Of a stretch of DNA of 64,000 nt, positions 14,157-59,157 are shown in pieces (position 1 is the stretch's first letter; each line of letters opens with the position of its first letter). Both the position numbers and the translations under genes were made by a program. The stretch is from the NCBI GenBank assembly GCA_964396165.1, contig CAYNEF010000013.1, forward strand, positions 13,478 to 77,477. The letters are read 5' to 3'. Under the pieces are notes generated by a model, which was not told the DNA's origin, made no database searches, and saw only the letters and a list, made by a program, of their open reading frames with translations. This stretch comes from an uncultured Pseudobdellovibrionaceae bacterium (lineage in GTDB: Bacteria; Bdellovibrionota; FAC87; UBA2466).

Positions 14157-14250
14157 TAATTTCAATTGTTAAGATCTCTTCACAAACCATCAATTTTCTC
14201 CATCATCTTTCCTTCACAATAATCGACTACAATTTGTACAGTTCACGTAT

Positions 14251-18303: not shown

Positions 18304-18365
18304 AGTTTTGAAATTTAACATAAAGTTTTGACGCAATTTTTCCGATAAGTGAGCTGGAGATTTGC

Positions 18366-35213: not shown

Positions 35214-36359
35214 ATGGCTATCACTAAAAAATTCAACCGAAAAAAAATACTAACAGTAATCGGTGTTTACCTACTTTGCTTGCTGGGTCTGGAAGTTGTG
35301 GGACAGTTCGTCATTAGTTATGTAGAAAGTAGACGCCCCAGTGGGATTTATGCAGAAAACATCATGAGCTTAAATGAAACGATGCTCGACTTTTCTCTAA
35401 AGAAAGGTGTCGACGAGGATTTCCCCGGATGGAATGTAAAAACTAATGCATGGGGTTATCGCATTGGAGATAAATTCGAATTAGAAAAACCAAAAGACAC
35501 TTTAAGAATTGTAATGGTGGGAGGTTCGACAGTGTTTGGCTGGGGAGTTGAGTACACAGAGTCTATCCCCAGTTACTTGCAGCACTTAATCACCAAAGAA
35601 ATTAAGTCCCAACGCGGGATCGCAAGTAACAATATCAAAGTGGAAGTAATTAACGCAGGTGTACCGTGGTATGCCACCTGGAATGAGAGCGCGATTGTTT
35701 TGCACCGTGTTTTAAAATTAAAGCCTGACTGGATTATCGCATTTGATGGGCTAAATGATGCAGCCAAGTCTCTCTCTCCTGACTGGAGCCCCGTGTACGA
35801 AGGCTATGAAGACATCGCGACTAACATTATCAAGCAACGCCGTTCGCACAAATTTGGATTCAAGGATTTCGTTCTCGAAGTGATTAAACTCAGCCCCACC
35901 ATGAAATATGTCTTCGCCAAAGTTAGAGCAAGACAACAATTGTCTTACGGTGCGTACCATCCTGAAGCGTGGGATCAGTATTTGTACTACCATAAAATGA
36001 TGAAGAGCACGTGTCAGGGGCTTGGGATCAAGTATTCCTCTTTTTTACAGCCTGTCATGATGGTGGACAAGCCGCTTAGTCCGAAAGAAGAAGCGACCAA
36101 TTACACCAGCATGCGTGACAATGTCATTGCCGATACCTTCCGACAAATTTACTGGTTGGGCCATTTGGCGGCATCGCAATCTGGGCTGGGAATCATTAGC
36201 CTTAAGAGTTTATTTAAAGACACAAAAGAAGTGATTTATCTGGATGGATTGCATTATAATGGACGCGGTAATCTGATGTTGGCAGAAGAAATTTTTGAAA
36301 AAGACGTAAAGCCCAATCTGATGCCTATCATTGCTTCGAACTTTAAGGAGTCCAAGTGA
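35214..36359 (+). CDS. Membrane-anchored SGNH/GDSL-like hydrolase (possible glycan O-acetyl esterase or transferase)
   Basis: N-terminal transmembrane segment. Block I VGGSTVFG, block III FDGLNDA, block V DGLHYN. Confidence 0.5.
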   Translation: MAITKKFNRKKILTVIGVYLLCLLGLEVVGQFVISYVESRRPSGIYAENIMSLNETMLDFSLKKGVDEDFPGWNVKTNAWGYRIGDKFELEKPKDTLRIVMVGGSTVFGWGVEYTESIPSYLQHLITKEIKSQRGIASNNIKVEVINAGVPWYATWNESAIVLHRVLKLKPDWIIAFDGLNDAAKSLSPDWSPVYEGYEDIATNIIKQRRSHKFGFKDFVLEVIKLSPTMKYVFAKVRARQQLSYGAYHPEAWDQYLYYHKMMKSTCQGLGIKYSSFLQPVMMVDKPLSPKEEATNYTSMRDNVIADTFRQIYWLGHLAASQSGLGIISLKSLFKDTKEVIYLDGLHYNGRGNLMLAEEIFEKDVKPNLMPIIASNFKESK

Positions 36360-37042
36360 ACAAAGTTTTCTTTCTGGTTTTAGTTTGTACCAATCTCATT
36401 TTCGCTGAACAAAATATCCAAAATATGGATCAACAGTTCATGCAAATGATGCAGCAACGTGCGCAAGAAGCAGAACGCGATGAAGAATTTAAAAATCCCA
36501 AAAAACCAAAATTGGATGCCAGCCGTGCCGTATTTGGAAACCGCAATGCCAAAATTCAAGTCATTGAATACTCTGATTTTCAGTGCCCTTATTGCAAAAA
36601 AGGTTCAGAAATTTTAAATGAAGTGAAAGAAAAGTATAAAGGCAAAATCATGGTGCAGTTTAAAAATATGCCTCTCCCTTTTCATCCTTTTGCGATGCCT
36701 GCTTCCAAAGTGTTTGAAGCCATTGCCATGCAGGATGCAAAAAAAGCATACGCCTTTCATGATGCTATTTTTGCTTCTCAAGAATCCTTATCCCAAGGCG
36801 ACAGTTTTTTATTTGAAGTGGCAAAAAAAGTGGGCGCGAATGTGGAACGTGTGAAAAAAGACATGAACTCCGATAAAGTAAAAAAGCGCATTGAAGAAGA
36901 CATGGAAGAAGCCAAAAAGTTCGGTATTCAGGGAACGCCTGGTTTCCTCGTCATGGGTGTCACCATTAAAGGCGCTTACCCGAAGGAAGAATTTTTCTCA
37001 GTCATCGAAAAAAGGCTCGCTTCAAAAAAATCAGCTAAATGA
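36356..37042 (+). CDS. DsbA-family thiol:disulfide oxidoreductase (periplasmic)
   Basis: Signal peptide. Active site CPYC. Thioredoxin fold. Confidence 0.8.
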   Translation: MNKVFFLVLVCTNLIFAEQNIQNMDQQFMQMMQQRAQEAERDEEFKNPKKPKLDASRAVFGNRNAKIQVIEYSDFQCPYCKKGSEILNEVKEKYKGKIMVQFKNMPLPFHPFAMPASKVFEAIAMQDAKKAYAFHDAIFASQESLSQGDSFLFEVAKKVGANVERVKKDMNSDKVKKRIEEDMEEAKKFGIQGTPGFLVMGVTIKGAYPKEEFFSVIEKRLASKKSAK

Positions 37043-41869: not shown

Positions 41870-42832
41870 ATGCCTAAAATTACTCTTTCCTTTTTTCGTT
41901 CGTATTTATCCATCCTTTTATTTACGGCGTTTGAAGTCGCTGCACTTCGTTTGATCTTGCACTCCGTATTAAGACTAGAAATCGGCTGGGTAGGGATGAC
42001 CGACTTTGACATTGCTATTCCGATGATGGTTTCTCTTTTTATTTCGTTACTTGTTTTAAGTCAGACAGGTGAATTGAAGTTAAAAATTCAAAAGCCCATT
42101 TTGTATTGCAATATAGCTTTAATCGCTTCGTTCTTAATCCTGAGCTCGATGCTGCCGCAAATAGGTGTATCGCCTTTGATCCACGGTATTTGGGTATTTT
42201 TATTACTTGCTGTTTTTCTTTCTTCTTTGTGTGTGTGGGTTGCCCCTTCTTTTTATGTATCTAATTCAAATAACTGGGTAGTTTTTCCGGCGTTGATGCT
42301 AGCTATTTCTGTTGTCGTTTATCAACATTACTATGAAGTAATGTGGCCTTCTTTGATTCCCCTAACGGGCAAGGCAAGTTGTGCTGTTTTAAAACCGATT
42401 TTGGGTGGGGCTTTAAAATGCAGCATGAATAGTTCCATGGACATGCTTTTAAGAGAAAAATATTTTTGGGCAGATATCGGAGCAGGGTGTTCAGGCATGG
42501 AAGGCCAGTTATTTTTCATTATTTCGTTTCTTATCCTGTTAAGTCTTTATGGAAAAAAAGTCGGCATCATTGAGTGGAGTATCTTTTTGATTTCAGGCCC
42601 GATCGTGATTTTTTGGGCAAATATATTAAGAATTGTCGTATTTTTTCTCATCGGGGCAATCTCGGTAAGGACGTCTTACTTTAATTTCGGTCGTACTACG
42701 ATGTTATTTCTCTTCCATTCTCATGCTGGTTGGGTTCTCTATTCCTCAGCAATCCTATGCCTGCAGTCCTTAGTTCTTGTGCCTTCAGTAAAGAAAAAAA
42801 TCTCGCAAGCTGCCGTTGCACACGTGAAGTAA
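41870..42832 (+). CDS. Exosortase/archaeosortase-family polytopic membrane protein (putative transpeptidase)
   Basis: About 8 transmembrane helices. Candidate active-site motif GAGCSGMEG, N-x-x-R motif WANILRIV and a downstream FHSHAGW, matching the Cys/Arg/His pattern of exosortases. No PEP-CTERM partner is seen nearby. Confidence 0.55.
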   Translation: MPKITLSFFRSYLSILLFTAFEVAALRLILHSVLRLEIGWVGMTDFDIAIPMMVSLFISLLVLSQTGELKLKIQKPILYCNIALIASFLILSSMLPQIGVSPLIHGIWVFLLLAVFLSSLCVWVAPSFYVSNSNNWVVFPALMLAISVVVYQHYYEVMWPSLIPLTGKASCAVLKPILGGALKCSMNSSMDMLLREKYFWADIGAGCSGMEGQLFFIISFLILLSLYGKKVGIIEWSIFLISGPIVIFWANILRIVVFFLIGAISVRTSYFNFGRTTMLFLFHSHAGWVLYSSAILCLQSLVLVPSVKKKISQAAVAHVK

Positions 42833-42958
42833 TAATCACTACTTAGCGATTATGAAAAAATCTCCTTAGTCCACTTAAGCCCCCGTCCTGACTGCTAAAA
42901 AGCCGTGCTCTCTCAATTATGAAAATAATGCAGCTGGAAAAGCTTCTGTAATACTCCG

Positions 42959-42964
42959 TATAAT
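42959..42964 (+). promoter_or_regulatory. Candidate -10 box (TATAAT) upstream of the giant adhesin gene
   Basis: TATAAT lies 64 nt upstream of the ATG at 43028. The ribosome-binding site GAGG sits 8 nt before the start. Confidence 0.3.
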
Positions 42965-43027
42965 CAGTATGTACAAAAGAATAGATTTTATTAGTTGTTC
43001 ATTTTGCAGAACGTATGTGAGGTATAT

Positions 43028-46000
43028 ATGAGTAATAAACCACGATTAATTTCCTATTTTGGGTTTTTAACACTGCTGCTACTAAGTACCCAGGTACAAG
43101 CAGAAGTAGGCAGTACTTTCACTGCAACTATTCCAGTAACCAAGCCCGGTGATTCTGCCGGCAGTTTCAACCTCGCAATTGGTGGTTTAAGCGGTACTGC
43201 TTCAGGTACATTCACCGATACCAAAACCGGTCATTATAAGTATGTTGTGGGAAGCGGTTCTGGATATTGGTCTACAAAACGTGCAAGTGAAATTACCAAC
43301 TTTGGTTCTTACATCAGATACGGGCTGCAATTAAATTCTTTGCAAATTATGCAAAGCTTTAATAGCAAAGTACAAAATACAATTTTAAATAGTTATAACA
43401 ATGCTACTGAAGATGCCTATGTTTGCCCTACAGGTGCAGGTGGTTCGAGCGCTGACTACAACTGGATTTTATTAAGACCCCGCACGCCAGAAGAAGCGAC
43501 ACTCAAAAAAGTTTATAACGATGCCACCAAAAATAGAGTGGGTGGACGTGTGCATTATACGCAAAGTGGAAATGCTGTAACAATGACGGGCGAAGGCTCA
43601 TTTGATTTAGTGAATTTGACTGAAGCTGGTACTGCTTATGCGGTAACTCCACAAGGTTCTGAAACTTGTGATACGACCAATGCCTCCAGACAAAAAACTA
43701 CTAGCACTGGTGCCGATTATTTAGATCCATTCGGTTATTTCTGGTTCGGAAAAAGAGACGGTTCAAACAATCCTCAAGCAGCAATGTATATCAGTACGAA
43801 ATCAAGCCCGATGGTAGCACTTTTTGCGCCTACTCAAGTACTCGACAGTACTGTCATGTCTACTTTGTCCAATTACCGTTTTGCTACACTTTATACTTCG
43901 TGGAACTCCAAAACGTCCATCACTACTAAGACAGCGGTTATCACTCCTGACACTGCTGGAACTACTTTTACAGTAGAAAATGTTTCTGATCTGGAAGCAC
44001 CTAAGACATCCAGAACTGCGTTAGGTACGATTACTTGTACCAGTTTGAACAGTCCTAGCAATGGATTTTGCTCTGGCACACTCACATTAAATGGCGTTTC
44101 TGGTACAGGCAAAAGCGTTTGCATGATTGCAAATATTGGGACTCAAAATACGATTTCTTGCATTGCTCAAAATCCGGCTGACAATCGCTATGCGATCACT
44201 TTAGTGGCAACTTATTCCAAAAAAGCAAATTTAATTATCACTCCTACTTATAGTGAAGGTACCGGTTGCAAAACTTTCAGCGTTGAAAATCCTTCCAATA
44301 GATATATTTCAAGTCTTGGTATTCCAGCAAATCCTGCGCAACAACTTTCTGGTAACTGGAGTCTTGGTGCAAGCTCATTCTCAGGAAGCGGTGGCTATTG
44401 CGGATCTTCTATTGCTCCTTGGGATACGTGTAATATTCAGGTGTGTAACAATGACACTACAGCGACTTCCGAAGTGGCAACTGTCAGAATTGCGTATGAT
44501 GACGGTGCAACGACAGTAAATTCTACTACGGCTGTGGCTAAAGTGCCTACCACTGTTGCAAGCGTGTTTTCAAATCCGGATGGGACATCCTATACTTGCC
44601 ACGACACTTCCACTGTTCATACTTTTACAAATAAGTTTCAATATAATGTTGAGTATGCAAATGCAGCAGTAGAGGATTTGATCGCTTCTGTAGATGCAGA
44701 TTCCTTACTGAGTATTTCTGTCAATTCTCCTGGTTGGTCCGTAAGCAGTAACAAAGCAACCATCGATTGCGGCAATGCTAATCTACATGACGGTGATCAA
44801 GCAACGTTTTATGCAAAATATTTCCCTGATGGTAATTTAACAGACAATAACGGATCTGTTACTTTCACATTACACTTCGACGTAGACAGTGATGGGGTTA
44901 ATGATTCAGCGGATAACTGCCCGCTTATTTCTAACGTCAGCCAAACCGATACAGACGGTGACCTTGTCGGGGATGATTGCGATAATTGCCCAGCCGTCAG
45001 CAACGTTGCTCAAACGGATACTGACAGCGACGGCGTAGGCGATGCATGCGACAATTGTCCTGCTGTTTCCAACGGCGATCAAGCTGAAACAGTGGCGGAT
45101 GGCGACGGATTAGGCGATGCGTGCGACAACTGCCCCACAGTATCGAACGTAGGACAAGAAAATAACCTAGGCGGAACTGCTGCAGGCGATGTGTGCGAAG
45201 ATCAAGATTTGGATAACGTAGTGGACGGATCGGATAATTGTCCGCTTGTTGCAAATGGTACACAAGATAATAACAAAGGTGGAACAGCTGCCGGTGATGC
45301 GTGCGAAGATCAAGACGGTGACGGTGTAATGGATGCTACAGATAACTGCGTGACTACGTACAATCCAGAGCAGGGAGATTCCGACAGTGATGGAATCGGT
45401 AATGCATGCGATGATACGGATGGTAACAGCACATGTACTCTATTAACTTCGATGACCGGTGTAAATTATACGAATACGCAAAGTGGTTGGTCGTTTTATG
45501 TTCACTCTGTGACCGGCTGCCACGCCCAAGTATATGCTACACAACTGGGCACTAGTACAGCTGCCTATGTGTATGATAATAAACTTTATCTTTCCAGCAC
45601 AGGGCTGTTGCACAACCCGTACCTTGCATTCGGTCAAGGCTACTATCTCGATTTAAGTTCGGGATTGGGAACAATTACATCAAATTACAACGGCTATACG
45701 TACTATGCCCCTGACACAGACGGTGATGGTTATTCTGATTTAGTCGACAATTGTATCTCCGCTTACAATCCGGATCAGGCAGATTCTGATGCGGATGGTA
45801 TTGGGAATGCTTGCGATACTTCAGATACAAACTGCAATGCAATTACAACTGCCTATGAAGGTGTGCAATGGTACGCTCCGAATTTAGGTTGGAGTTTCTA
45901 CTTGAGTTCGATAGCTGCGAACAATTGCAGTTTTACCCTCTATTCACCACAAGTCGGTTATGCTAACGCGTATTATTATAATGGTGCTCTCTATGCAAAA

Positions 46001-47239
46001 TCTTCAAGCGTTATGTATGGCTCTTACTTAACTATCGGCGGTGGCCAAACCATGCCGTTAAGTAATAGCAATCTCTCAGCTTATGCTGGAGGCGGTTATT
46101 ATTATAACGTAACTACCGACTGTGCCGGAGTAATGGGTGGAACAGCAGTGGTGGATAACTGCAATGTCTGTTCTGGTGGAACCACTGGAGTAACAGCTTG
46201 TACACAAGACTGTGCTGGTACTTGGGGTGGCGCTGCAGTTATTGGTGGTTGCGATAATATGTGCGGAAGTACAGCGGTAACAGATTGTAATGGTACTTGT
46301 GGTGGTACAGCTACTGTAGACAGCTGTGGTGTCTGCGGTGGTAATAACAATGATTGTGCTGCAGATATGTTTGGAACATATTGCTCTGCAGCTTCGAAAG
46401 GATGCAGCAATGTTTGCGGCAGCAACTCTACTGTAGACAACTGTGGTGTCTGCAATGGCAATAACAATGATTGTAGCCCAGACTGGACGGGTACGTATTG
46501 CTCAGCGGCTGCGAAAGATTGCAGCGGCCGTTGCGGCGGTGCTGCAATATTGGATTGTAACGGTTCTTGCGGAGGCGCAGCTGTTATAGACAACTGTGGT
46601 GTCTGCGGTGGAAATAACAGCAACTGTAGCCAGGATGCCAATGGAACCTATTGCGCTACAACTTCCTTAGGTTGCAACAACATATGTAATAGTGGACTGA
46701 CAGTCGATGCATGCGGCGTCTGCGGAGGAAATGATTGTAGCGCAGATGCAAACGGTACCTATTGCTCCGCTGCTGCCAAAGGTTGCAACAACGTCTGTAA
46801 TAGCGGTGTAGTAGCAGATTGTGCTGGCGTCTGTGGTGGTACAGCAACTTTAAGTGGTTGTGACAACGCTTGCGGAAGTACAGCAGTATTAGATTGCGCT
46901 GGCGTCTGCGGTGGTACGGCAGTTGTAGGCGGTTGCGATAACACTTGCGGAAGTACAGCAGTAGTCGATTGCGCTGGCGTCTGTGGTGGTACGGCAGTTG
47001 TAGGCGGTTGCGATAACACTTGCGGAAGTACAGCAGTAGTCGATTGCGCTGGTGTCTGCGGTGGTTCAGCCGTGTTAAGTGGTTGCGACAATGCATGTAA
47101 CAGTACAGCAGTAGTAGACTGCGCTGGCGTCTGCGGTGGTTCAGCCGTGTTAAGTGGATGTGACAATACCTGTAACAGCACTGCAGTAGTGGATGCCTGC
47201 GGAGTTTGCGGTGGTGACGGTTCAAGTTGTGCTCCGTAA
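43028..47239 (+). CDS. Giant secreted Cys-rich adhesin-like protein with thrombospondin type-3 repeats and C-terminal CxxCGG tandem repeats
   Basis: The ORF track starts at 42995; the Met at 43028 has an ribosome-binding site. Signal peptide. Central D-x-D-x-DG-x-x-D-x-x-DNCP repeats. Two homologous W/Y-rich modules of about 95 aa. About 40 copies of C-x-G-x-CGG-x-A... units. Ends ...CGVCGGDGSSCAP. Confidence 0.8.
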   Translation: MSNKPRLISYFGFLTLLLLSTQVQAEVGSTFTATIPVTKPGDSAGSFNLAIGGLSGTASGTFTDTKTGHYKYVVGSGSGYWSTKRASEITNFGSYIRYGLQLNSLQIMQSFNSKVQNTILNSYNNATEDAYVCPTGAGGSSADYNWILLRPRTPEEATLKKVYNDATKNRVGGRVHYTQSGNAVTMTGEGSFDLVNLTEAGTAYAVTPQGSETCDTTNASRQKTTSTGADYLDPFGYFWFGKRDGSNNPQAAMYISTKSSPMVALFAPTQVLDSTVMSTLSNYRFATLYTSWNSKTSITTKTAVITPDTAGTTFTVENVSDLEAPKTSRTALGTITCTSLNSPSNGFCSGTLTLNGVSGTGKSVCMIANIGTQNTISCIAQNPADNRYAITLVATYSKKANLIITPTYSEGTGCKTFSVENPSNRYISSLGIPANPAQQLSGNWSLGASSFSGSGGYCGSSIAPWDTCNIQVCNNDTTATSEVATVRIAYDDGATTVNSTTAVAKVPTTVASVFSNPDGTSYTCHDTSTVHTFTNKFQYNVEYANAAVEDLIASVDADSLLSISVNSPGWSVSSNKATIDCGNANLHDGDQATFYAKYFPDGNLTDNNGSVTFTLHFDVDSDGVNDSADNCPLISNVSQTDTDGDLVGDDCDNCPAVSNVAQTDTDSDGVGDACDNCPAVSNGDQAETVADGDGLGDACDNCPTVSNVGQENNLGGTAAGDVCEDQDLDNVVDGSDNCPLVANGTQDNNKGGTAAGDACEDQDGDGVMDATDNCVTTYNPEQGDSDSDGIGNACDDTDGNSTCTLLTSMTGVNYTNTQSGWSFYVHSVTGCHAQVYATQLGTSTAAYVYDNKLYLSSTGLLHNPYLAFGQGYYLDLSSGLGTITSNYNGYTYYAPDTDGDGYSDLVDNCISAYNPDQADSDADGIGNACDTSDTNCNAITTAYEGVQWYAPNLGWSFYLSSIAANNCSFTLYSPQVGYANAYYYNGALYAKSSSVMYGSYLTIGGGQTMPLSNSNLSAYAGGGYYYNVTTDCAGVMGGTAVVDNCNVCSGGTTGVTACTQDCAGTWGGAAVIGGCDNMCGSTAVTDCNGTCGGTATVDSCGVCGGNNNDCAADMFGTYCSAASKGCSNVCGSNSTVDNCGVCNGNNNDCSPDWTGTYCSAAAKDCSGRCGGAAILDCNGSCGGAAVIDNCGVCGGNNSNCSQDANGTYCATTSLGCNNICNSGLTVDACGVCGGNDCSADANGTYCSAAAKGCNNVCNSGVVADCAGVCGGTATLSGCDNACGSTAVLDCAGVCGGTAVVGGCDNTCGSTAVVDCAGVCGGTAVVGGCDNTCGSTAVVDCAGVCGGSAVLSGCDNACNSTAVVDCAGVCGGSAVLSGCDNTCNSTAVVDACGVCGGDGSSCAP
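44878..45833 (+). repeat. Thrombospondin type-3-like calcium-binding repeats (two clusters)
   Basis: DSDGVNDSADNCP, DTDGDLVGDDCDNCP, DTDSDGVGDACDNCP and similar, then DTDGDGYSDLVDNC...DSDADGIGNACD. Confidence 0.7.
46118..47230 (+). repeat. Cys-rich CxxCGG tandem repeat region; last 5 units are near-identical 75-nt DNA repeats (46817-47192)
   Basis: Protein period of 25 aa: DCAGVCGGTAVVGGCDNTCGSTAVV. DNA units at 46892, 46967, 47042 and 47117 are 75 nt apart. Units 1 and 2 differ by 1 nt. Confidence 0.85.
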
Positions 47240-47291
47240 GACATTACGCTCGCATCTTACGCACGGATTGTCTTTTTGATATAATTTACGC

Positions 47292-47933
47292 ATGAAAAAA
47301 ATAAATCCGTTTCTTTTCGCTGTGCCTTTTCTTGTTTTATTCTTGCTCCAATCTGCTTGTACTAAAGAAGAGAGTAAAACAGAAAGTAGTGAAGAGAAAA
47401 AAAATCCACAGGCAATAGCGCAAACTACGGAAACCCCAAAAGCCTTGGCAACTAGCCAGCCCACACCTTCTGCAGCTCCTGCAAAATCCGATGTCTTATT
47501 CAAACTTCCAGCTGAAATGAAGCCTACAGCGGAACAAGAAGTTTTGATTCAGAAATTGAAAAAGCAATATGCTGCACAGATTGAAGTAGAACAAGATAAG
47601 CTGATAAATACGTATACGGAAGAGCAAAACAAGCAGCGCATCGAAGCCGCAAAGCAAGCTGGCGCTGAAGGAAAAAAAGGAAAGGATTTTGCCGACGCAG
47701 TAAAAAAAGCTGTCAAATTATCTGCAGAACAAGAGCAAAAAATAGATCAAGCGCTAAAGGAAATCACGAAGTTTAGCTCTCTTATCCAGACAGAACTTGC
47801 AAAGACGTACACACCTGAGCAAAAACAAGAGCTATTAGAGTTCTCAAAAAAAGCTGCGGGAAGCGTTTCCCCTTCAGTAAAAACTGAAGAAACCAGTCAG
47901 AAAAAAGCGCAAAAGATAAAAACAAAATACTAA
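47292..47933 (+). CDS. K/E/Q-rich coiled-coil lipoprotein (possible periplasmic chaperone-like)
   Basis: Lipobox LLQSAC. Low-complexity helical sequence. Confidence 0.45.
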   Translation: MKKINPFLFAVPFLVLFLLQSACTKEESKTESSEEKKNPQAIAQTTETPKALATSQPTPSAAPAKSDVLFKLPAEMKPTAEQEVLIQKLKKQYAAQIEVEQDKLINTYTEEQNKQRIEAAKQAGAEGKKGKDFADAVKKAVKLSAEQEQKIDQALKEITKFSSLIQTELAKTYTPEQKQELLEFSKKAAGSVSPSVKTEETSQKKAQKIKTKY

Positions 47934-48035
47934 AATACGACCTAGCCACCTCGCGTAATAGACCTTACTCATGCTCTTTGCTATAATTTATAAGTCTTAA
48001 ACTACTCCACTTTTTAAAAATAACCTGAGGCAGCA

Positions 48036-48836
48036 ATGAACAATAAATTTATACAATCCACCCTATTTTTCGCATTACTTCTAAGCGTAACCAATTGCAC
48101 CACAAAGAATCAACTAAAAGCAATGCTTGTAGAAAATCCGGACATTTTAGTGGAAGCATTCCAGAAAAATCCCGATAAATTTTCACCCATATTCAATCAG
48201 GCTAGAGCACAAGCACAAGCGAGAAATGTGGAAGCTGAGAATGCGAAACGAGAAGAGGATTTTAAAAATCCCAAGCAGCCTTTAGTAGATACAAAACGGC
48301 CTATCAAAGGAAAAGTGAATGCGCCAGTTACGATCGTGGCCTATTCTGATTTTCAATGCCCTTTCTGCTCGCGAGTCGAAGACACGATGGCAGAACTCAT
48401 GAAAAAAAACGAAGGCAAAATCCGATACGTGTTTAAAAACTTCCCACTTCCTTTTCATCAATATGCCATGCCCGCAGCCCTTCGGTACGAAGCTATTTCC
48501 ATGCAGAGTAAAGAACTTGCTTTGAAATACCATGATGAACTTTTTAAAAATCAAAATCTGATGAATACGGAAAAAGAAGCGTATTTGGATAAAGCAGCGG
48601 CAAAGATTGGCGCCAATGTCGCAAAAATGAAAAAAGATATCGCAACAGATGCCGTTAAAAAGAGAGTCGAAGCAGATATCGAAGAAGGAAAAAAATTCGG
48701 CGTGACAGGAACCCCCGCCTTTCTTATCAACGGCGTCTTTATCAACGGAGCACGAGGAGTGCAGGACTTCGATGCGATTGTTCAAAGATGGCTTAAGAAC
48801 CCACCCACACGGGAAGTCAGTTCAGATAAGAAATGA
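48036..48836 (+). CDS. DsbA-family thiol:disulfide oxidoreductase
   Basis: Signal peptide. CPFC active site. Paralog of 36356 and 48833. Confidence 0.8.
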   Translation: MNNKFIQSTLFFALLLSVTNCTTKNQLKAMLVENPDILVEAFQKNPDKFSPIFNQARAQAQARNVEAENAKREEDFKNPKQPLVDTKRPIKGKVNAPVTIVAYSDFQCPFCSRVEDTMAELMKKNEGKIRYVFKNFPLPFHQYAMPAALRYEAISMQSKELALKYHDELFKNQNLMNTEKEAYLDKAAAKIGANVAKMKKDIATDAVKKRVEADIEEGKKFGVTGTPAFLINGVFINGARGVQDFDAIVQRWLKNPPTREVSSDKK

Positions 48837-49522
48837 AATATTTTTTAATTTCTATCCTGCTGGTAGGTCTTGTACATTGCACGCCCAAAGAGACCGTACC
48901 TGATTCTAAAACGGCGCAAGAAGAGCGAGCGCGCAAAGCCAAAGAAGAGTTTGAAAAGAAACTCGATGCAGATTTTGCAACCCCACTGCAACCTGATCTG
49001 TCAGAGAAACGCCCCTTTCGAGGTGCTAAGAACGCAAAAGTTGTTCTGGTTGTCTATTCTGATTTCCAATGCCCATTTTGCAGTAGAGGATTTCAGACAT
49101 TGGAGCAGGTGCGTGAAAAATACCCGAACGATGTGAAGATTATTTTTAAACACATGCCGCTTGAGATGCACTCCGCTGCTGAAACAGGGGCAAGGTATTT
49201 TGAAGCAATCGCACTTCAAGATGAAGAAAAAGCATGGAAGTTTCACGACACGCTTTTTTTAAACCAGGATCAGTTGGGGGAAGAAGCGGAAAAATACATG
49301 AAATCCACTGCAAAAAGTCTGAAAGTGGATATGAAAAAATTAGCAAAAGACATCAAGTCCGACGCTGTCACGAAACGCCTGAAAGCCGACTCAGAAGAAA
49401 CTAGAAAGTTTCGTTTTACTGGAGCTCCCTCTTTTATCGTGGGAGGAGTAAGAGTAGTTGGAGCTAAGGGTTTTCCGCTATTTGAAAAAATCATTGATAG
49501 GCATCTGAAGCCTAAGTCTTAG
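48833..49522 (+). CDS. DsbA-family thiol:disulfide oxidoreductase
   Basis: Signal peptide. CPFC. Its start overlaps the stop of the preceding DsbA gene. Confidence 0.8.
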   Translation: MKYFLISILLVGLVHCTPKETVPDSKTAQEERARKAKEEFEKKLDADFATPLQPDLSEKRPFRGAKNAKVVLVVYSDFQCPFCSRGFQTLEQVREKYPNDVKIIFKHMPLEMHSAAETGARYFEAIALQDEEKAWKFHDTLFLNQDQLGEEAEKYMKSTAKSLKVDMKKLAKDIKSDAVTKRLKADSEETRKFRFTGAPSFIVGGVRVVGAKGFPLFEKIIDRHLKPKS

Positions 49523-49527
49523 AAAAG

Positions 49528-49893
49528 TTACTTCTTCGCCAAGTTTCGTTGATTTTTCCAAATCATCACTGATGGCACAATCACAGAAATAAATAACGCT
49601 AAAATAATCCAAACAGACTTTGACGTATTTTCTCCTATTTCCGAAACCCCAGCAGAGCAGGGAAGAGTGGCTATGTTACGGCACTCGCCATTCGTAAAAA
49701 TACAAGGAGATTGTAGGTCACACGTTTCCTGGTCAGGTGCATCACAGCAATTTGAACATCCGTCTGGAGTGCCGGGGCAAAACTTGCATTGGCCCGTACA
49801 GTCGGTACTTGTAGCACAAGTACCTCCGCAATCTGCGGCGTAGAGATTCAAACTATAAAAAGATAGTAGAAAAGCTAGCAATGCAATTTTCAT
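49528..49893 (-). CDS. Small Cys-rich secreted protein with C-terminal transmembrane anchor and basic tail
   Basis: Signal peptide MKIALLAFLLSFYSLNLYA. 16 Cys in about 70 aa (CGGTCATSTDCTGQCKFCPG...). C-terminus ...VWIILALFISVIVPSVMIW-KNQRNLAKK, which is a transmembrane helix plus a basic cluster. Confidence 0.5.
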   Translation of the reverse strand: MKIALLAFLLSFYSLNLYAADCGGTCATSTDCTGQCKFCPGTPDGCSNCCDAPDQETCDLQSPCIFTNGECRNIATLPCSAGVSEIGENTSKSVWIILALFISVIVPSVMIWKNQRNLAKK

Positions 49894-49975
49894 TGGAAGA
49901 CCTTTGATTGAAGATAACAATAAGGATAAACGGAATGTTCTTATTAGACAATATGCTATGTTTTATGCGGTGAGC

Positions 49976-50620
49976 TTAAAAAATTCTAAAGGTGACTCGG
50001 CGGTTCTTACTTTGGTTTTCAATAATGGCGACACCTTCTTTATCACGGTTGGGAACAATGGGTTTTACGTCTCCCCAAGCAATGGCACTGGTTCTTTTTT
50101 GTAAGTTTTCAGGCAGGTTTAATGCGCGTAGTACTGCAAGAGCTCTTTTGGAAGACAGTTCCCAGTTATCCTCGATTTCTTTAGTGTGGATGGGAACGTC
50201 ATCAGTATGCCCTTCAATTCCGATATGAAAGCGATCAGGGACTTGAGACAAGGCTTTTGCCAAAGAATCTAGCTTTTGCAATCCCACTTCATGCAAGCGG
50301 TATTCGCCGCTGCTAAAAAAGACATTGTCTTTTACTTCAATGACAATCGCGTCTTCTTCTCTAGATACGGAAATTTGCTCTGAGAGTTTTTGCGTGTCGA
50401 CCCAAGCGTTAAATTTCTGTTGCATGACCTGGACTGGATCTGCGGGCTTAGGTTTGTTCTGGATAGTGGCAACAATTTCTTTAAAATCAGATTGTTTGAC
50501 TTTCTTGTAGGTGAAACTGAAAAGCATGACAAAAAATACGAACAGCAAAATCATCAAGTCGCTTAAAGAGGTAAGCCATAAGAACTCACCACTGTCTTCT
50601 TTTTTTCTTACGCGTTTCAT
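49976..50620 (-). CDS. motB: MotB/OmpA-family stator protein
   Basis: N-terminal transmembrane helix LMILLFVFFVMLFSF. C-terminal OmpA-like peptidoglycan-binding domain ...GHTDDVP...SSKRALAV. Confidence 0.75.
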   Translation of the reverse strand: MKRVRKKEDSGEFLWLTSLSDLMILLFVFFVMLFSFTYKKVKQSDFKEIVATIQNKPKPADPVQVMQQKFNAWVDTQKLSEQISVSREEDAIVIEVKDNVFFSSGEYRLHEVGLQKLDSLAKALSQVPDRFHIGIEGHTDDVPIHTKEIEDNWELSSKRALAVLRALNLPENLQKRTSAIAWGDVKPIVPNRDKEGVAIIENQSKNRRVTFRIF

Positions 50621-51397
50621 TTAAGAAGCTTTTTTGCTCGTCTGATTGGGATTTTCAATTTCCGCCGCATCCGCAAAATAATTGCTTGGCTTTCTTTTTT
50701 CCATCAGCTCAAGCCATTTCATTGTCTGATCATAGCCTTCGTTCTCAATATCATGAACCCGTTCCAATTTTTGTTGTAGCGGAGTCCAGACACAGATAGA
50801 AAAGAATAAACCGTAAAAAGTGGTAAGAAGCGCCAAACTCATGTTGGATCCTATTTTAGACGGATCTTCTAATGTGGAAAGCAGCCTTACCATCCCAAGA
50901 ATAGTTCCTAACATGCCGAGAGAGGGTGCAAGTCTGAGTCCCATGGAGGTGACTGAGAGACACTGCTGCGTTCTATTGGCAAATCTATCTCTTTCGATTT
51001 CCAGTAATTCCCGGATGTCAGAAGCCGGCATTTTTACAGACAGGCGTTCAATGGATTTTTTCACATAAGAGGATATTTTGCCCGTTTTTACTCTTTCAAA
51101 TACGGCAATTCCTTCGGCGTAAAAATCTTTGCCTAATTTATGTAAAAGCATGGCTTCTTTTTCATGCAAGTGGATTCTGGTTTTGGGCCCGTCTCCAAAA
51201 ACAAGACTTAAAACGCGCGCAAGCACTTCGCCTTCGAAACAAACCATGGCAAGCGCTATTGGGCCAAGACCCGTAAGCACAATGGCGGGCCAATGGAGCA
51301 TGCGGTAAGCCCCTTCCAAGGAAGATTGGCTTTCGAATTCATACACAACAAACAGGCAGGTAAACAATAATGCTACCCCAGATAGTCGAGAAATCAT
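50621..51397 (-). CDS. motA: MotA/TolQ/ExbB-family proton channel
   Basis: 4 transmembrane helices. C-terminal signature LTTFYGLFFSICVWTPL. Confidence 0.8.
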   Translation of the reverse strand: MISRLSGVALLFTCLFVVYEFESQSSLEGAYRMLHWPAIVLTGLGPIALAMVCFEGEVLARVLSLVFGDGPKTRIHLHEKEAMLLHKLGKDFYAEGIAVFERVKTGKISSYVKKSIERLSVKMPASDIRELLEIERDRFANRTQQCLSVTSMGLRLAPSLGMLGTILGMVRLLSTLEDPSKIGSNMSLALLTTFYGLFFSICVWTPLQQKLERVHDIENEGYDQTMKWLELMEKRKPSNYFADAAEIENPNQTSKKAS

Positions 51398-53082
51398 GCA
51401 ATCGCCTCACGGATTTTTTTGGTCAAAATAATTTTTGCTGCATTTGTTTTTTCTTTGTCAGATTCTTTATACCCTTGCAATTGATCGAGAAGGTGCTCTC
51501 TTCTTTTAGGAGATAATGCATCCAAAAGCACATCTGCTACATCCTTACTGCAAGTGGAAAGAGCCAGACACAATTCATCGTTATCTACATTCACAAGTAC
51601 TTTTTCAAGGATGGAGTCTGGTAAGCTTGCTGCGTCTTCCAGGGCAAATCGGTATTTTTTTAAAGAGGGATATAGGTCAGGTTTTTCTCTTTCAATGATT
51701 CTTAAAATTGAGTCCTGATCGTCTGCTTCACTTAAGATGTTTCCCCAGAAATCTGCTTCGTCTTTACTTGCGCCGAAAATATTTTTAGGAAGTTGGTTGG
51801 AAATCTTTCTTACCTGTTGTTCGATTTCGACAAGCTCTGAAAACGGAATCTGGTTTAGTTTGGAAGAGTAGGCTAGTACTTCTGATTTTTGCTTGTCAGT
51901 AAGTGTCTTTAGTATTTTTGCAGATTGTTCAGGCCGCATGAATCTTAATAGCACGCAAACAGTGCGCGGAGTTTGTTGCTGAGCAATCGCATTTATTTGT
52001 TCATCGGTTAAATAATGCATGAATCCGAAAAACTGTCCGCTTTTCCAGTCTTGTGCTCTTACGTACTCATCAAAGTTTTTTTCATGTCTTTGCAGTTTTT
52101 GATCGAGATCGGGAGGCTCGATGAGTTTAAGGGGACGGGTGACACGTACACCGTCTAGTAAACTGTCAAAAGCAGGTCCTTGAAGACCCGCATAGAGTTC
52201 CATACGAAGATCTGTATTTAAAACATCGTGGTAATTTTTAAAAGCTTCTGATCTGGAGAGAAATTTCGCAAGCAGGCGCTGGCGTAATTCAGCAGCAGAT
52301 TCTTCCGTCGATTCTTTCGACTGTGATTTTTGAAAAGACTGGCTCTTTGCTACTTCATGCGGGTGCATAAAGGGAAGTAAGTTTCTTAAAGAGGTGTCTG
52401 CATTCCCATTTTTTTGAGATTCCCGCTGAATAAGAAGCATCATGGCGATTGCACCCAAGACTGCTGCCCCAATCCATTTTACATACTGCCAAACTTGTTC
52501 CATGAGTGTGGGGGGAGTTTTTTCTTTTAACTTCTCAAGCTCAACCTGCATTTTTTCCATTAAAACTTCTGCTTCTGATTTTGCCGGTTTTCTTTCAGGC
52601 TTTAGCATAGGAAGTTCGGAATAGCTGACAAAGGCCTTATTCGAATAGCTTCCGCGTAAGTATTCCTGAACTGCGTTTTTTGCCTGTGTGATAGTGGCAG
52701 GCTTTAGCGCGTCATCGAATTTTACATACACTCGAAGTGCCGCTAGTTCGCTTGAGTCTACGGTTCTATAGACTTGTCTAGACTGCGTTGGCTTGTCTTT
52801 GGATCTTTCTTCTTTTATTTCGGGAACAAAGCCAGGCATCGGTGGAACAGTAGTTTCTTCTTCTCTTTCCACTTGAGAAATAATCGTTTCGCCTTCTACC
52901 AGTTTGCGTTCAGATTTAACCTGCACTTCGGCATTTACCTGCACCAGAAATTCTTCTTTGGGAATCAGTCGGGATAAAGCATTTTCCAGATCCCCTTGTA
53001 CTTTACTTTCGACAAGATAAGCGTCATTCATCGCAGAGGCGATAAGCGGAAATAAAAATAAAATGTAGCCGAAATGCTTCAT
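51394..53082 (-). CDS. Bitopic hypothetical protein with a periplasmic N-domain and a cytoplasmic helical (FliG/MgtE-N-like) C-domain; partner of MotAB
   Basis: Signal peptide. One transmembrane helix near aa 200. C-terminal helical repeats. ATGA overlaps with both neighbours. Confidence 0.4.
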   Translation of the reverse strand: MKHFGYILFLFPLIASAMNDAYLVESKVQGDLENALSRLIPKEEFLVQVNAEVQVKSERKLVEGETIISQVEREEETTVPPMPGFVPEIKEERSKDKPTQSRQVYRTVDSSELAALRVYVKFDDALKPATITQAKNAVQEYLRGSYSNKAFVSYSELPMLKPERKPAKSEAEVLMEKMQVELEKLKEKTPPTLMEQVWQYVKWIGAAVLGAIAMMLLIQRESQKNGNADTSLRNLLPFMHPHEVAKSQSFQKSQSKESTEESAAELRQRLLAKFLSRSEAFKNYHDVLNTDLRMELYAGLQGPAFDSLLDGVRVTRPLKLIEPPDLDQKLQRHEKNFDEYVRAQDWKSGQFFGFMHYLTDEQINAIAQQQTPRTVCVLLRFMRPEQSAKILKTLTDKQKSEVLAYSSKLNQIPFSELVEIEQQVRKISNQLPKNIFGASKDEADFWGNILSEADDQDSILRIIEREKPDLYPSLKKYRFALEDAASLPDSILEKVLVNVDNDELCLALSTCSKDVADVLLDALSPKRREHLLDQLQGYKESDKEKTNAAKIILTKKIREAIA

Positions 53083-53717
53083 TTGAATTTTTCGAGAAGA
53101 TTTTTTACTTGTAAGTTATTGGGTTCTAAAACGAGAGCTTGCTGCCAAGCTTTTTTTGCCAAATCAGATTGCTTTTGCGCATACATCAAACTGCCTTTCA
53201 TGACCCAGGCACGCGCATAGTCCGGTTTTTTGCGCAAGATTTCTTCCACTACTTGCGTTGACTCATAAAATTTCTTTTTGTTGTAAAGGCGGTTTGCCTC
53301 TAAGACCATTCGATCTGTCTCATCGTATTCGATGATGATTTTTGGGGGAATCACTGCGGCAGGTTCGCGTTTTTCTTCTTCCACTTTTTTTGTCGTAATG
53401 GTTGTATTGTTTTCAGTGGTATTGGATGTGGAATTTGCGCCGCCTGGCATTTGCATCCCGGGCATTCCAGGCATCATCATTACCGTCGGTAATTGTGGCT
53501 GTGGCGTTGGAGTAGGTGAGGGCTTGATTTCACTCATTGGAATTTCAATATTGTAGTTAAACCCGCCGTCTGGAGCATAATCGCCCATGATGATTTTTTT
53601 TCCATAGGGAGTGATCAGTTCAAGGCCGGCTTGAGTCTCATGCACGTGGTAGTTTTCATTGCTGTCTGCAAAGACAAGACACGATGAAAGCAGTATGAAT
53701 GTATAAACCCATTCCAT
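53079..53717 (-). CDS. Secreted TPR-repeat protein with a Pro-rich linker
   Basis: Signal peptide. PTPTPQPQLP low-complexity stretch. C-terminal TPR (...AWVMKGSLMYAQKQ...AWQQALVLEPNN). Confidence 0.6.
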   Translation of the reverse strand: MEWVYTFILLSSCLVFADSNENYHVHETQAGLELITPYGKKIIMGDYAPDGGFNYNIEIPMSEIKPSPTPTPQPQLPTVMMMPGMPGMQMPGGANSTSNTTENNTTITTKKVEEEKREPAAVIPPKIIIEYDETDRMVLEANRLYNKKKFYESTQVVEEILRKKPDYARAWVMKGSLMYAQKQSDLAKKAWQQALVLEPNNLQVKNLLEKFK

Positions 53718-53720
53718 GGA

Positions 53721-54665
53721 TTAATGTCCCAATGAGATTCCTATATGCGCGCCTGCGTATCCTTTGTTGATAGAGGCGTCTTCTTTGTCTGGTGAAAAAT
53801 AAATGGCGTCGGCACCCAGTACGGCAAGCGAACCTAAAAAGAGTTCCACTGAAGCACGGCCGGCAAATCCTTTTGCACCACCACCGAACGCGTAACCGAG
53901 TCCCGGGTTGATGGAATAACTTAAAAAGCTGTGTCCGAATCTTCCTCTAAAAGCAAGAGTGGGGCATAGAGCAATAATACTGCCACTGCCAAAGACTGCA
54001 TGTAAACTTAAGCCTGCTTTTGCAAATCCCACTTCTTCAAGCAGTGCCAATCCGACAGAGTTTGAAGTAGTCGATTCAGAGGATGTGGAAGCGCCACCAA
54101 ACATTTTTCCAGAACCAAGTGTAAAAAGAAACTGAACAGAACTGTCTTGGATGCTGAGTGCGGGTACGGTAAATCTCTCAGCGCTGATTAAATCTCCCGT
54201 TGGGTTTTTATAAAGACTGGCTTGAGCGATCAAATTCAATTTTGTTCGGTAAATTTCCACGATGAGAAAAGATTCTACGGGATAACGTTTGCCCAGCTGT
54301 TTGATGTGCTCAATATCAGGCGCGCCTTTACTGATCACTACTCTGTCTTCAGAAACATTGATCTGAGGGGTACGGCATTCGGAACAAGAGGTGACTTTAG
54401 TAATTCCTTTTTCAGACAACCCTTTCATTATTTCTGTTTCTACAATGTTGCTGAAATCTTGATCGAGCGGGTAGTTGGTGTGAACATAGAAAATACCTAC
54501 GGACCTAGGACGCATTTCCTGATCACTTATCCAATCGGCAATTTCCTCACCGATCGTAGAGCCTGCTTTAAACTCAGCCTCTTCCGGTGACCGTGCAAAA
54601 GTGCTTGCGGAAATTACGATCGCAAGAAGAAGAATAAAATAGTTGTATTTTCTTTTCGTATTCAT
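53721..54665 (-). CDS. Hypothetical secreted protein, possible outer-membrane beta-barrel
   Basis: Signal peptide. C-terminal half is G/A/S/F-rich with alternating hydrophobic residues. Confidence 0.4.
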   Translation of the reverse strand: MNTKRKYNYFILLLAIVISASTFARSPEEAEFKAGSTIGEEIADWISDQEMRPRSVGIFYVHTNYPLDQDFSNIVETEIMKGLSEKGITKVTSCSECRTPQINVSEDRVVISKGAPDIEHIKQLGKRYPVESFLIVEIYRTKLNLIAQASLYKNPTGDLISAERFTVPALSIQDSSVQFLFTLGSGKMFGGASTSSESTTSNSVGLALLEEVGFAKAGLSLHAVFGSGSIIALCPTLAFRGRFGHSFLSYSINPGLGYAFGGGAKGFAGRASVELFLGSLAVLGADAIYFSPDKEDASINKGYAGAHIGISLGH

Positions 54666-58065: not shown

Positions 58066-59157
58066 TCAACCGCGCGGTTTTAATTGAGATTCTACTTTTT
58101 GTTTCAACTTTTCGTACGGTTGATTGCCTTGAATCAATGTGCCGTTGACGATTAGAGAGGGAAGGGCAAGTATTCCCATTTTGACTGCCTGTTGTTTGCT
58201 TTTTTCAATTTGCTCCGAATATTGCTTTGAATCCAAACAGGAATTGAATTTTTGTGTGTCGATGCCGATTGTTTTTGCATAGTCTTTTAAATTTTTGTCT
58301 TCCAGTTTGTGCGGGTTTTGAAAAAGCAATTCCCGCATTTCCCAAAACTTGCCTTGATCATTTGCACAGCGAGCGGCAATGGCAGAGGGGTATGCGCGAG
58401 GGTTAGAAGGAGTCGGATTTTCTGCAAAGACAATCTTAACTTTGTCAGGACCAAATTCTTTTTTCAAACGCTCCATGTTTTCAGTGTTTCGCGCGCAATT
58501 GGCGCAAGGAAAATCAGAGTATTCGACCACTGTCACAGGAGCATTGTTGTTTCCCCACTTGGCATAACCATCGAGAGTCAGGGTAACAATATTTTCTGAA
58601 GGTTCGGGGATGAGTAATTTGATATTTGCTTCGGAAGCCAGTTTTTCTAAATAAGCTTCTCTTTTTTCTGCTGTAGCACGGTATTTTAAAAAGTTTTTAA
58701 TATCTTCTCTTTTGATTTTACGATCTTTCGGGTTCAGTCCCTTGGAAAGCATGTAGTTTGTGACATCGTCATTAGTAGGTTCGCTAACTTCTCCGCCTAG
58801 ATTTTTTGCGATTAAAGAAGGGATACTCATCTTCGATTTTTTTGCTTCTTCTTCGAGAAGCTTGCTTTGAATATGATCCAAAATGGCTTTGCGTTTCATT
58901 TCATATAAGGAAGATTCAATTTCGTAGACGCGGTTTTTTATAGAAAAGTAGGCGTCTTGCGCTGTGATACCGGTGCCATTGTACACAGCAACTACATCTT
59001 CTTGTTTAGTGATTTGAGTAGCTCGATTTTTATTTGCAAAGAAAAAACCCATGCCGAACCCGACTGCAATCCCACCCAAAGTTAGTAAGACAAACAGGGA
59101 AGAGTTGCCTTTGGAATTACACAAAATATTTTTTTGATTTGATTGGATTATTTTCAT
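58066..59157 (-). CDS. Membrane-anchored DsbA-like thioredoxin-domain protein with a long N-terminal extension
   Basis: Transmembrane helix. Region of about 150 aa. Thioredoxin domain with CANC active site. Confidence 0.65.
   Translation of the reverse strand: MKIIQSNQKNILCNSKGNSSLFVLLTLGGIAVGFGMGFFFANKNRATQITKQEDVVAVYNGTGITAQDAYFSIKNRVYEIESSLYEMKRKAILDHIQSKLLEEEAKKSKMSIPSLIAKNLGGEVSEPTNDDVTNYMLSKGLNPKDRKIKREDIKNFLKYRATAEKREAYLEKLASEANIKLLIPEPSENIVTLTLDGYAKWGNNNAPVTVVEYSDFPCANCARNTENMERLKKEFGPDKVKIVFAENPTPSNPRAYPSAIAARCANDQGKFWEMRELLFQNPHKLEDKNLKDYAKTIGIDTQKFNSCLDSKQYSEQIEKSKQQAVKMGILALPSLIVNGTLIQGNQPYEKLKQKVESQLKPRG

Follow-up and report, generated by a model that had tools for sequence, protein, structure and literature searches.

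Exosortases are widespread protein-sorting enzymes, and the locus described here encodes a member of this family with no exopolysaccharide (EPS) genes in its flanks. The locus lies at positions 41870–49920 of a 64,000-nt stretch of DNA (hereafter, the window) from contig CAYNEF010000013.1 of an uncultured Pseudobdellovibrionaceae bacterium, and contains six genes that code for a polytopic enzyme of the exosortase family, a giant secreted protein, a lipoprotein, two DsbA-like proteins and a small Cys-rich secreted protein. We consider it likely that the locus encodes a dedicated, possibly one-to-one, exosortase–substrate pair, in which the small protein is the proposed cognate substrate, together with an associated giant surface protein or adhesin. 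This reading is favoured because the locus shows the pattern laid down in the published criteria for dedicated sorting systems, in which the genes for the enzyme and for a single target are consecutive or close together and the target combines a signal peptide at its N-terminus with a tripartite signal at its C-terminus (PMC3237569; bioRxiv 10.1101/2023.06.07.544157). All the main elements reported in the first-pass annotation of this stretch, which had viewed the interval as a candidate island for surface-protein sorting and oxidative folding, were found where it had placed them.

The exosortase-family enzyme

The enzyme gene (41870–42832, + strand) encodes a 320-aa polytopic protein that passes the TIGR04178 exo_archaeo model with 27.5 bits (cut-off 23, E = 2.9e-6) and carries the motifs IGAGCSG (Cys207), WANILR (Arg254) and FLFHSHAGW (His283/285). 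Its candidate catalytic residues are encoded at 42488–42490 (Cys207), 42629–42631 (Arg254) and 42716–42718 (His283). A triad of Cys, Arg and His is the proposed catalytic centre of the exosortase/archaeosortase superfamily (bioRxiv 10.1101/2023.06.07.544157). The protein has no Pfam match and stays below the cut-off of every named Xrt/Art subfamily model, the next best being exosortase X (NF046081) with 21 bits against a required 170.

A word-indexed search with the enzyme returned only the protein itself and one relative with 74% identity. When 1.84 billion cluster representatives were searched exhaustively with HMMER, 210 of them matched at E ≤ 1e-3 and 133 at E ≤ 1e-10; nearly all are 310–350 aa long and align over their full length. 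TIGR04178 is passed by 58 of the 60 best relatives (best E 6.6e-13), Pfam Exosortase_EpsH is matched by 12 and exosortase X (NF046081) is weakly matched by 18, and none of the 60 approaches a named Xrt, Art or Crt model. Members of the family appear in public databases as 'exosortase/archaeosortase family protein' or as 'hypothetical protein'. In an alignment of 127 sequences, Cys207 and Arg254 are each conserved in 126 and His283 in 125; Asn251 (125/127) and Gly209 (127/127) are likewise conserved. The exosortase set of Cys, Arg and His that the first-pass annotation had read in this single protein is thus nearly invariant across the family, and its assignment of the protein to the exosortases was borne out by the profile models. 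A CPBP protease and an O-antigen ligase, which it had named as the identities that would speak against an exosortase, were rejected: no such matches were seen, PF02517 included, and the Cys and Arg are conserved. Because TIGR04178 is passed, the Cys/Arg/His set is conserved and the named models are not reached, the enzyme is, as judged from sequence, a genuine member of the exosortase family that belongs to a sizeable subfamily with no curated model.

The AlphaFold2 (AF2) model of the enzyme, built on 60 sequences, is of high confidence (pLDDT 92.7, pTM 0.86) and shows a helical membrane bundle of 8–9 long hydrophobic helices with a small beta sheet just before Cys207, in accord with the roughly eight transmembrane helices expected of the superfamily. 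There are Lys/Arg-rich loops at residues 64–74 and 228–232, and the C-terminus is Lys-rich; by the positive-inside rule, Cys207, His283 and a conserved T-D-x-D loop (residues 44–47) would face the periplasm. No solved structure was found that shares the fold of the enzyme or has sequence similarity to it.

Linkage of the small Cys-rich protein to the enzyme

The small gene (49528–49893, − strand) encodes a secreted protein of 121 aa with a signal peptide and 12 Cys residues. A word-indexed search with this protein, too, found only itself and one relative. Its association with the enzyme was assessed in DNA from around the enzyme-family members (≤ 21 kb around each), which was taken from Logan, ENA, JGI and NCBI assemblies; the metagenome scan yielded three useful loci, and the scan of genome collections only a decayed copy (L003, see below) and distant exosortases of other types. 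Thirteen loci were informative, and their enzymes have 22–74% identity to that of the window; L021 and L022 were too short to judge. A homologue of the small protein is encoded beside or near the enzyme gene, at a distance of 0–6.7 kb and usually directly adjacent to it, in 11 of these 13 loci (the window, L001, L011, L012, L013, L015, L017, L019, L020, L023 and L024). The homologues in the distant loci (L011–L013, L015/16, L017/18, L019, L020, L023 and L024/25) have 18–36% identity to the small protein of the window. All these proteins are 111–134 aa long and share a signal peptide, 9–13 Cys residues with the same spacing, and a C-terminal transmembrane helix followed by an Arg/Lys cluster.

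The arrangement of the two genes varies. In L001, the locus of the relative with 74% identity, the enzyme gene is followed first by the two DsbA genes and then by the small Cys gene and MotB. The small gene is divergent from the enzyme gene, at 48–196 nt, in six loci (L011, L012, L013, L015, L019 and L020), overlaps it by 4 nt in one operon in L023 and L024, and lies 2.5 kb from it in L017. Across the 11 loci, the distances among the enzymes correlate with those among the small proteins (Mantel r 0.85, p 2e-4 by permutation). When the window is compared with L001, non-synonymous divergence (dN) of the enzyme gene, both DsbA genes and the small gene is 0.20–0.23 and synonymous divergence (dS) is saturated; these values, seen against a relative with 74% identity, indicate that the genes of the locus are real and that these four are under purifying selection.

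The locus L003 (positions 9932–10603, from the metagenome-assembled genome 'Proteobacteria bacterium LLD_190') has an apparently decayed copy of the enzyme gene, in which an internal deletion has removed the region of the catalytic Cys and left a 223-aa open reading frame (ORF). Although the flank of this locus shows synteny with that of L012, there is no small Cys gene in it.

Linkage in 11 of 13 loci strongly backs the small Cys-rich protein, which the first-pass annotation had picked out, as the likely substrate as far as comparative genomics can tell. The same linkage bears on an alternative in which the enzyme would be a general exosortase that serves many dispersed tail-bearing targets, the small protein being one of them or simply the nearest. 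Most described exosortases do serve many PEP-CTERM proteins (PMC1569441; PMC3237569), and our view is of 64 kb of this genome and of the flanks sampled around each relative. However, targets in many-to-one systems are typically not encoded beside the enzyme (PMC3237569), whereas here a single target family is adjacent to it in 11 loci and co-diverges with it, and no second tail-bearing ORF was seen in any flank of the family loci. We therefore regard a general exosortase as unlikely here.

The C-terminal tail of the small protein

The tail of the small protein (residues 79–121, encoded at 49531–49659, − strand) reads GVSEIGENTSKS-VWIILALFISVIVPSVMIW-KNQRNLAKK. It is made up of Cys79, a GVSEIG motif (VSEIG at nt 49633–49647), a spacer, the transmembrane helix WIILALFISVIVPSVMIW and the final basic cluster. 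Strict and relaxed six-frame scans of the 64 kb revealed no other credible ORF that ends in a transmembrane helix and a basic tail. Since the small protein is the sole credible tail-bearing ORF, there is no PEP-CTERM protein in the window, in agreement with the first reading of this DNA.

In the related loci, the tails take the form C-NNGIPEAP (L012 and L013), CPTEQIPE[SA]P (L011 and L015), C-TGVPEAP (L017), C-AVPEIP (L019), CPTVVPETP (L020), CPVSVPEVP (L024) and, in the most distant member (L023), C-TPTPEPP; the window and L001 share CSAGVSEI[GN]. Only the Glu (Glu85) and the preceding Cys are invariant in the aligned tails, and PExP is present in 9 of the 11. The signal of the family can thus be written as C-x(2-4)-[VIT]PExP, followed by 1–8 residues, the helix and the basic cluster, which makes it a relative of PEP-CTERM. 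As read from the alignment, the VSEIG of the window is a derived form of this family motif. The suggestion that the enzyme recognises a 'non-PEP' signal consequently holds for the window lineage with its VSEIG and fails for the family, in which [VIT]PExP prevails and L023 even has PEPP. The invariant tail Cys (Cys79 in the window) is probably the last disulfide-forming Cys of the ectodomain.

None of the curated sorting-domain models reaches its cut-off on any tail of the family. The tail of the window protein does not match the PEP_CTERM model TIGR02595 even at E ≤ 10; the L023 tail aligns with that model in register, scoring 8.3 bits against a cut-off of 16. A match to TIGR04200 'PExPT-CTERM' was rejected as spurious, as it fell on the signal peptide and scored 11.6 bits against a cut-off of 40. 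The small protein and its ectodomain have no relative in Pfam, NCBIfam or PDB.

The tail could also serve as a permanent anchor; the small protein would then stay uncleaved and partner or regulate either the enzyme or the giant protein, with the motif as a hinge or a contact site. Such a role would be compatible with the lack of prolines in the motif of the window, with cleavage being argued from analogy, with a spacer of variable length (1–8 residues) that separates the motif from the helix, and with a low-confidence AF2 model in which residues 86–119 form one long C-terminal helix. Against it, the tail has the exact three-part design of a sorting signal, with an invariant Glu and, in most members, a PEP-like PExP, and the paired enzyme has a Cys/Arg/His centre that is conserved almost absolutely. 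On balance, an uncleaved partner seems quite improbable to us, and we retain the small protein as the proposed substrate.

The giant protein

The giant gene (43028–47239, + strand) encodes a secreted protein of 1403 aa, counted from an ATG at 43028 that is preceded by a GAGG ribosome-binding site; a TTG at 42995 is an alternative start that would give 1414 aa. The size of 1404 aa given earlier is thereby slightly corrected. The protein contains 88 Cys residues and the small protein 12, which falls short of the 100–160 or so that had been supposed. It ends in ...CGVCGGDGSSCAP and, as the first-pass annotation had observed, has no C-terminal transmembrane helix; because it has no C-terminal tail, the giant protein was rejected as a candidate substrate of the enzyme.

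Four parts can be distinguished in the giant protein. A signal peptide is followed by a conserved N-terminal domain of ~500 aa with 10 Cys residues (aa ~26–520, nt 43028–44587, + strand), thrombospondin (TSP) type-3 Ca-binding repeats (aa ~615–945, nt 44870–45862, + strand) and a C-terminal array of CxxCGG-type repeats with 58 Cys residues (aa 1031–1403, nt 46118–47236, + strand). The TSP type-3 repeats carry DxDxDG motifs and match Pfam TSP_3 (PF02412) above the cut-off in six stretches (1.6e-28, 98.5 bits). The N-terminal domain has no match in Pfam, NCBIfam or PDB.

This N-terminal domain recurs in large proteins encoded beside the enzyme gene, to which it has 26–35% identity (E 1e-30 to 1e-68). 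It is found in eight loci, that is, in the window and in L011 (in a protein of 1613 aa), L013 (2437 aa), L015 (> 2898 aa), L017 (695 aa), L020 (1301 aa), L012 and L019, the last two being gene starts that are cut by contig ends. Six Cys residues and the motif NxPxxGFCxGTLT are invariant in it. The distal parts of the related giant proteins differ, consisting of PT-rich repeats, beta-propellers or Ig-like domains. It is therefore the conserved N-terminal domain, and not the Cys repeats, that ties the giant protein to the system, and even this tie is missing in L001, which has no giant gene. A similarity between the small protein and the Cys repeats of the giant protein was also considered and dropped, as tblastn gave no match.

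In two of the related loci, L015 (11135–11425) and L017 (11119–11367), a Pro/Ser-rich lipoprotein of 82–96 aa is encoded between the exosortase-like gene and the giant gene. The 195-nt gap between the enzyme and giant genes of the window holds no counterpart of it.

DsbA genes and lipoprotein

The tandem genes at 48036–48836 and 48833–49522 (both + strand), which overlap by 4 nt, encode DsbA-like thioredoxin-fold lipoproteins of 266 and 229 aa, respectively, each with a CPFC active site. The first matches Thioredoxin_4 (PF13462) with 1.3e-27 (97 bits) and DSBA (PF01323) with 6.7e-19 (69 bits), the second Thioredoxin_4 (PF13462) with 2e-22 (81 bits) and DSBA (PF01323) with 3.7e-21 (76 bits). 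The first-pass annotation had listed three DsbA genes: the tandem pair was there, but the interval holds only these two, and the window holds five in all, with further paralogues at 36356–37042 (+), 58066–59157 (−) and 59240–60304 (−). The latter two have N-terminal extensions of ~190 aa, one of them SurA_N-like, and five DsbA/Thioredoxin_4 paralogues in 64 kb represent an unusually expanded set of periplasmic oxidoreductases.

None of the loci other than the window and L001 has a DsbA pair after the enzyme gene, so that the pair, which had been taken as part of a dedicated system, appears to be specific to this lineage, and the window has five paralogues in any case. DsbA was accordingly rejected as a core component. 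In this lineage, the pair may plausibly act locally to oxidise the ectodomain with its 12 Cys residues and the giant protein with its 88. Between the giant and DsbA genes, a Lys/Glu/Gln-rich lipoprotein of 213 aa with the lipobox LLQSAC is encoded at 47292–47933 (+ strand). It has no family match and no homologue in any related locus, L001 included, and this coiled-coil lipoprotein, which had also been counted as part of the system, is thus unique to the window.

The notion of one integrated island for oxidative folding and sorting, with the DsbA proteins at its core and the enzyme acting on the giant Cys-repeat adhesin as cargo, draws on the gene order of the window (enzyme, giant protein, lipoprotein, DsbA, DsbA) and on the 88 Cys residues of the giant protein, but it is very unlikely and has been largely refuted by L001, where the giant gene is missing although the enzyme, the DsbA pair and the small gene are all retained, and by the missing C-terminal helix and basic tail of the giant protein, the more so as related giant proteins share the N-terminal domain only, not the Cys repeats, and loci other than the window and L001 have no DsbA genes.

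Proposed function of the locus

On the reading of the locus as a dedicated exosortase–substrate pair, the small protein would be exported by Sec and retained in the inner membrane through its C-terminal helix, its basic end facing the cytoplasm, and its ectodomain of ~60 residues would be oxidised to a disulfide-knotted module, here probably by the two adjacent DsbA lipoproteins. The Cys207/Arg254/His283 centre of the enzyme, at the periplasmic face of the membrane, would recognise the motif just outside the helix ([VIT]PExP or, here, VSEIG). By analogy with archaeosortase A and sortases, the helix may then be removed in a Cys207-dependent reaction at or near the [VIT]PE motif and the new C-terminus transferred to an acceptor. 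The giant protein would be the most likely functional partner, held or organised at the surface by the processed small module with its variable repeats directed outward. As the proximal domain of the giant proteins is conserved and their distal parts are variable, we suggest that the small module docks or organises them.

Several points weigh against this reading or against parts of it. The cleavage of the small protein is proposed here by analogy, and the AF2 model of that protein, which was built from two sequences, was unusable (pLDDT 53). In the VSEI[GN] of the window lineage, both prolines of the family motif have been replaced and only the Glu has been kept; recognition of such a motif may be altered or lost, yet the window and L001 have kept VSEI in common. 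Up to 8 residues separate the motif from the helix, a greater distance than in canonical PEP-CTERM signals. In the window, the small and enzyme genes are 6.7 kb apart and on opposite strands, and the small gene is downstream of motB. The genome may encode further targets beyond the 64-kb window. Finally, L001 has no giant gene, and L024 has none within 10 kb, so that the link between the small and the giant protein is not obligatory; the giant gene is a frequent but non-obligatory member of the cassette, and its link to the small protein is drawn from gene neighbourhood.

A bolder variant, which we hold to be improbable, is that the enzyme, rather than simply fixing the small module to a lipid or a glycan, links it covalently with the N-terminal domain of the giant protein, or turns it into a dedicated surface dock for that domain. 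In either case the two would make up an exosortase-built two-part adhesin, which would have its analogy in pilin-polymerising sortases. The covalent link, if true, would be the first protein–protein ligation by an exosortase.

Gene neighbourhood

The enzyme region is flanked by genes for 4-hydroxyphenylpyruvate dioxygenase and an S41 protease upstream and by MotAB downstream, and EPS genes were not found in the flanks of either the window or the L001 locus. The small gene and the second DsbA gene are convergent, with their stop codons only 5 nt apart (49522–49528) and no terminator-like hairpin between them; promoter and terminator scans of the locus gave results at chance level. As only 82 nt separate it from the upstream motB, which is on the same strand, the small gene may be co-transcribed with the motAB block.

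The latter (49976–54665, − strand) encodes MotB, MotA and a 562-aa protein with FliG_M and FliG_C domains, a hydrophobic N-terminus and a transmembrane-like segment in its middle, followed by a tetratricopeptide repeat (TPR) protein and by another protein, of 314 aa, whose function is unknown. The same block recurs in L001, where no further flagellar genes adjoin it, and may be a non-flagellar stator/FliG-like module.

In L017 (5240–7583) and L024 (7631–8434 and 12474–16198), glycosyltransferases are encoded within a few genes of the exosortase-like gene, the neighbours including a PMT-type protein mannosyltransferase, GT2 enzymes and sugar-modifying enzymes. The flanks of the window and L001 have no glycosyltransferases. 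With such neighbours in L017 and L024, a glycan link is conceivable for part of the family.

Elsewhere in the window, the segment at 10863–21140 (+ strand) encodes two proteins of > 1000 aa that have both TIG/IPT domains and Kelch beta-propellers and, downstream of them, a hybrid histidine kinase that contains receiver and Hpt domains; the Kelch repeats resemble a 940-aa protein encoded near the exosortase-like gene of L013. The window has one tRNA-Leu and no Rfam match.

Significance

The enzyme kind, the logic of the tripartite signal and the idea of a dedicated cassette were already known. New are the enzyme subfamily, the Cys-knot target family with its drifting PExP/VSEIG motif, the conserved N-terminal domain that the co-linked giant proteins share, and a setting without EPS genes in the flanks of the window and L001. 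Full-text searches on exosortases together with Bdellovibrio, cysteine-rich proteins or disulfides brought up no description of this system. Three uncurated families can be defined: the enzyme subfamily (~210 clusters at 50% identity), the Cys-knot target with its [VIT]PExP tail and the ~500-aa N-terminal domain of the giant proteins.

The acceptors of exosortases and their action as one-step transpeptidases are still unresolved in the field (bioRxiv 10.1101/2023.06.07.544157), and the value of the locus would lie mainly in its being a compact model for this chemistry. It offers a minimal system, with one 320-aa enzyme and one substrate with a ~60-residue ectodomain side by side, in which the cleavage site and the acceptor are therefore directly testable. 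It also shows that a PEP motif can drift to VSEIG in nature, which is relevant to the question of what features the enzyme in fact recognises.

Comparison with known systems

The pairing of an enzyme with a sole target encoded at its side is also seen in rhombosortase/GlyGly-CTERM and Gram-negative sortase/LPXTG cassettes (PMC3237569), whose enzymes are unrelated to the exosortase described here in both fold and chemistry. Likewise, the tails handled by myxosortases of the CPBP/Rce1 type (MYXO-, JDVT-, Synerg- and CGP-CTERM) contain an invariant Cys that precedes the helix by a few residues, as does the tail Cys of the small proteins (Cys79 in the window), which stands 2–4 residues before [VIT]PE. 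The differences are that the distance of this Cys from the motif is variable and that the partner enzyme is an exosortase with no PF02517 match rather than a CPBP protease.

Within the exosortases proper, the XrtA/EpsH–PEP-CTERM system shares with our pair the superfamily signature, the Cys/Arg/His set and the design of the tail (motif, transmembrane helix and basic cluster), and the [VIT]PExP of the relatives (PEPP in L023) is a close variant of its Pro-Glu-Pro. It differs in that the enzyme of the window does not match XrtA (TIGR02602), which is matched by only 2 of the 60 relatives (E 3e-4), and in that the tails of the family stay below the PEP-CTERM (TIGR02595) cut-off (at best 8.3 against 16 bits), the motif of the window being VSEIG. 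Moreover, XrtA has many dispersed targets, as compared with one adjacent target here, and the flanks of the window and L001 loci have no EPS genes.

Archaeosortase A (ArtA), which acts on PGF-CTERM proteins, is a homologous enzyme and serves as the mechanistic template for our proposal. It represents the only branch for which removal of the C-terminal helix and attachment of a lipid have been seen in experiments (summarised in bioRxiv 10.1101/2023.06.07.544157), although it is archaeal, reads another motif and has many targets, including the S-layer glycoprotein. Models of the ArtC type are weakly matched by 15 of the 60 relatives (best E 6e-9).

The same concept, a subfamily that is paired with a single small target of the PExP type, is found in exosortase J and PExPT-CTERM (TIGR04199/TIGR04200 'targ_of_XrtJ'), a comparison that we draw from the names of the models. 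TIGR04199 is matched by 2 of the 60 relatives (E 5.7e-5), and TIGR04200 gave only the spurious signal-peptide match described above. Unlike the XrtJ target, the one described here is a module with 9–13 Cys residues, and a giant protein is encoded alongside it.

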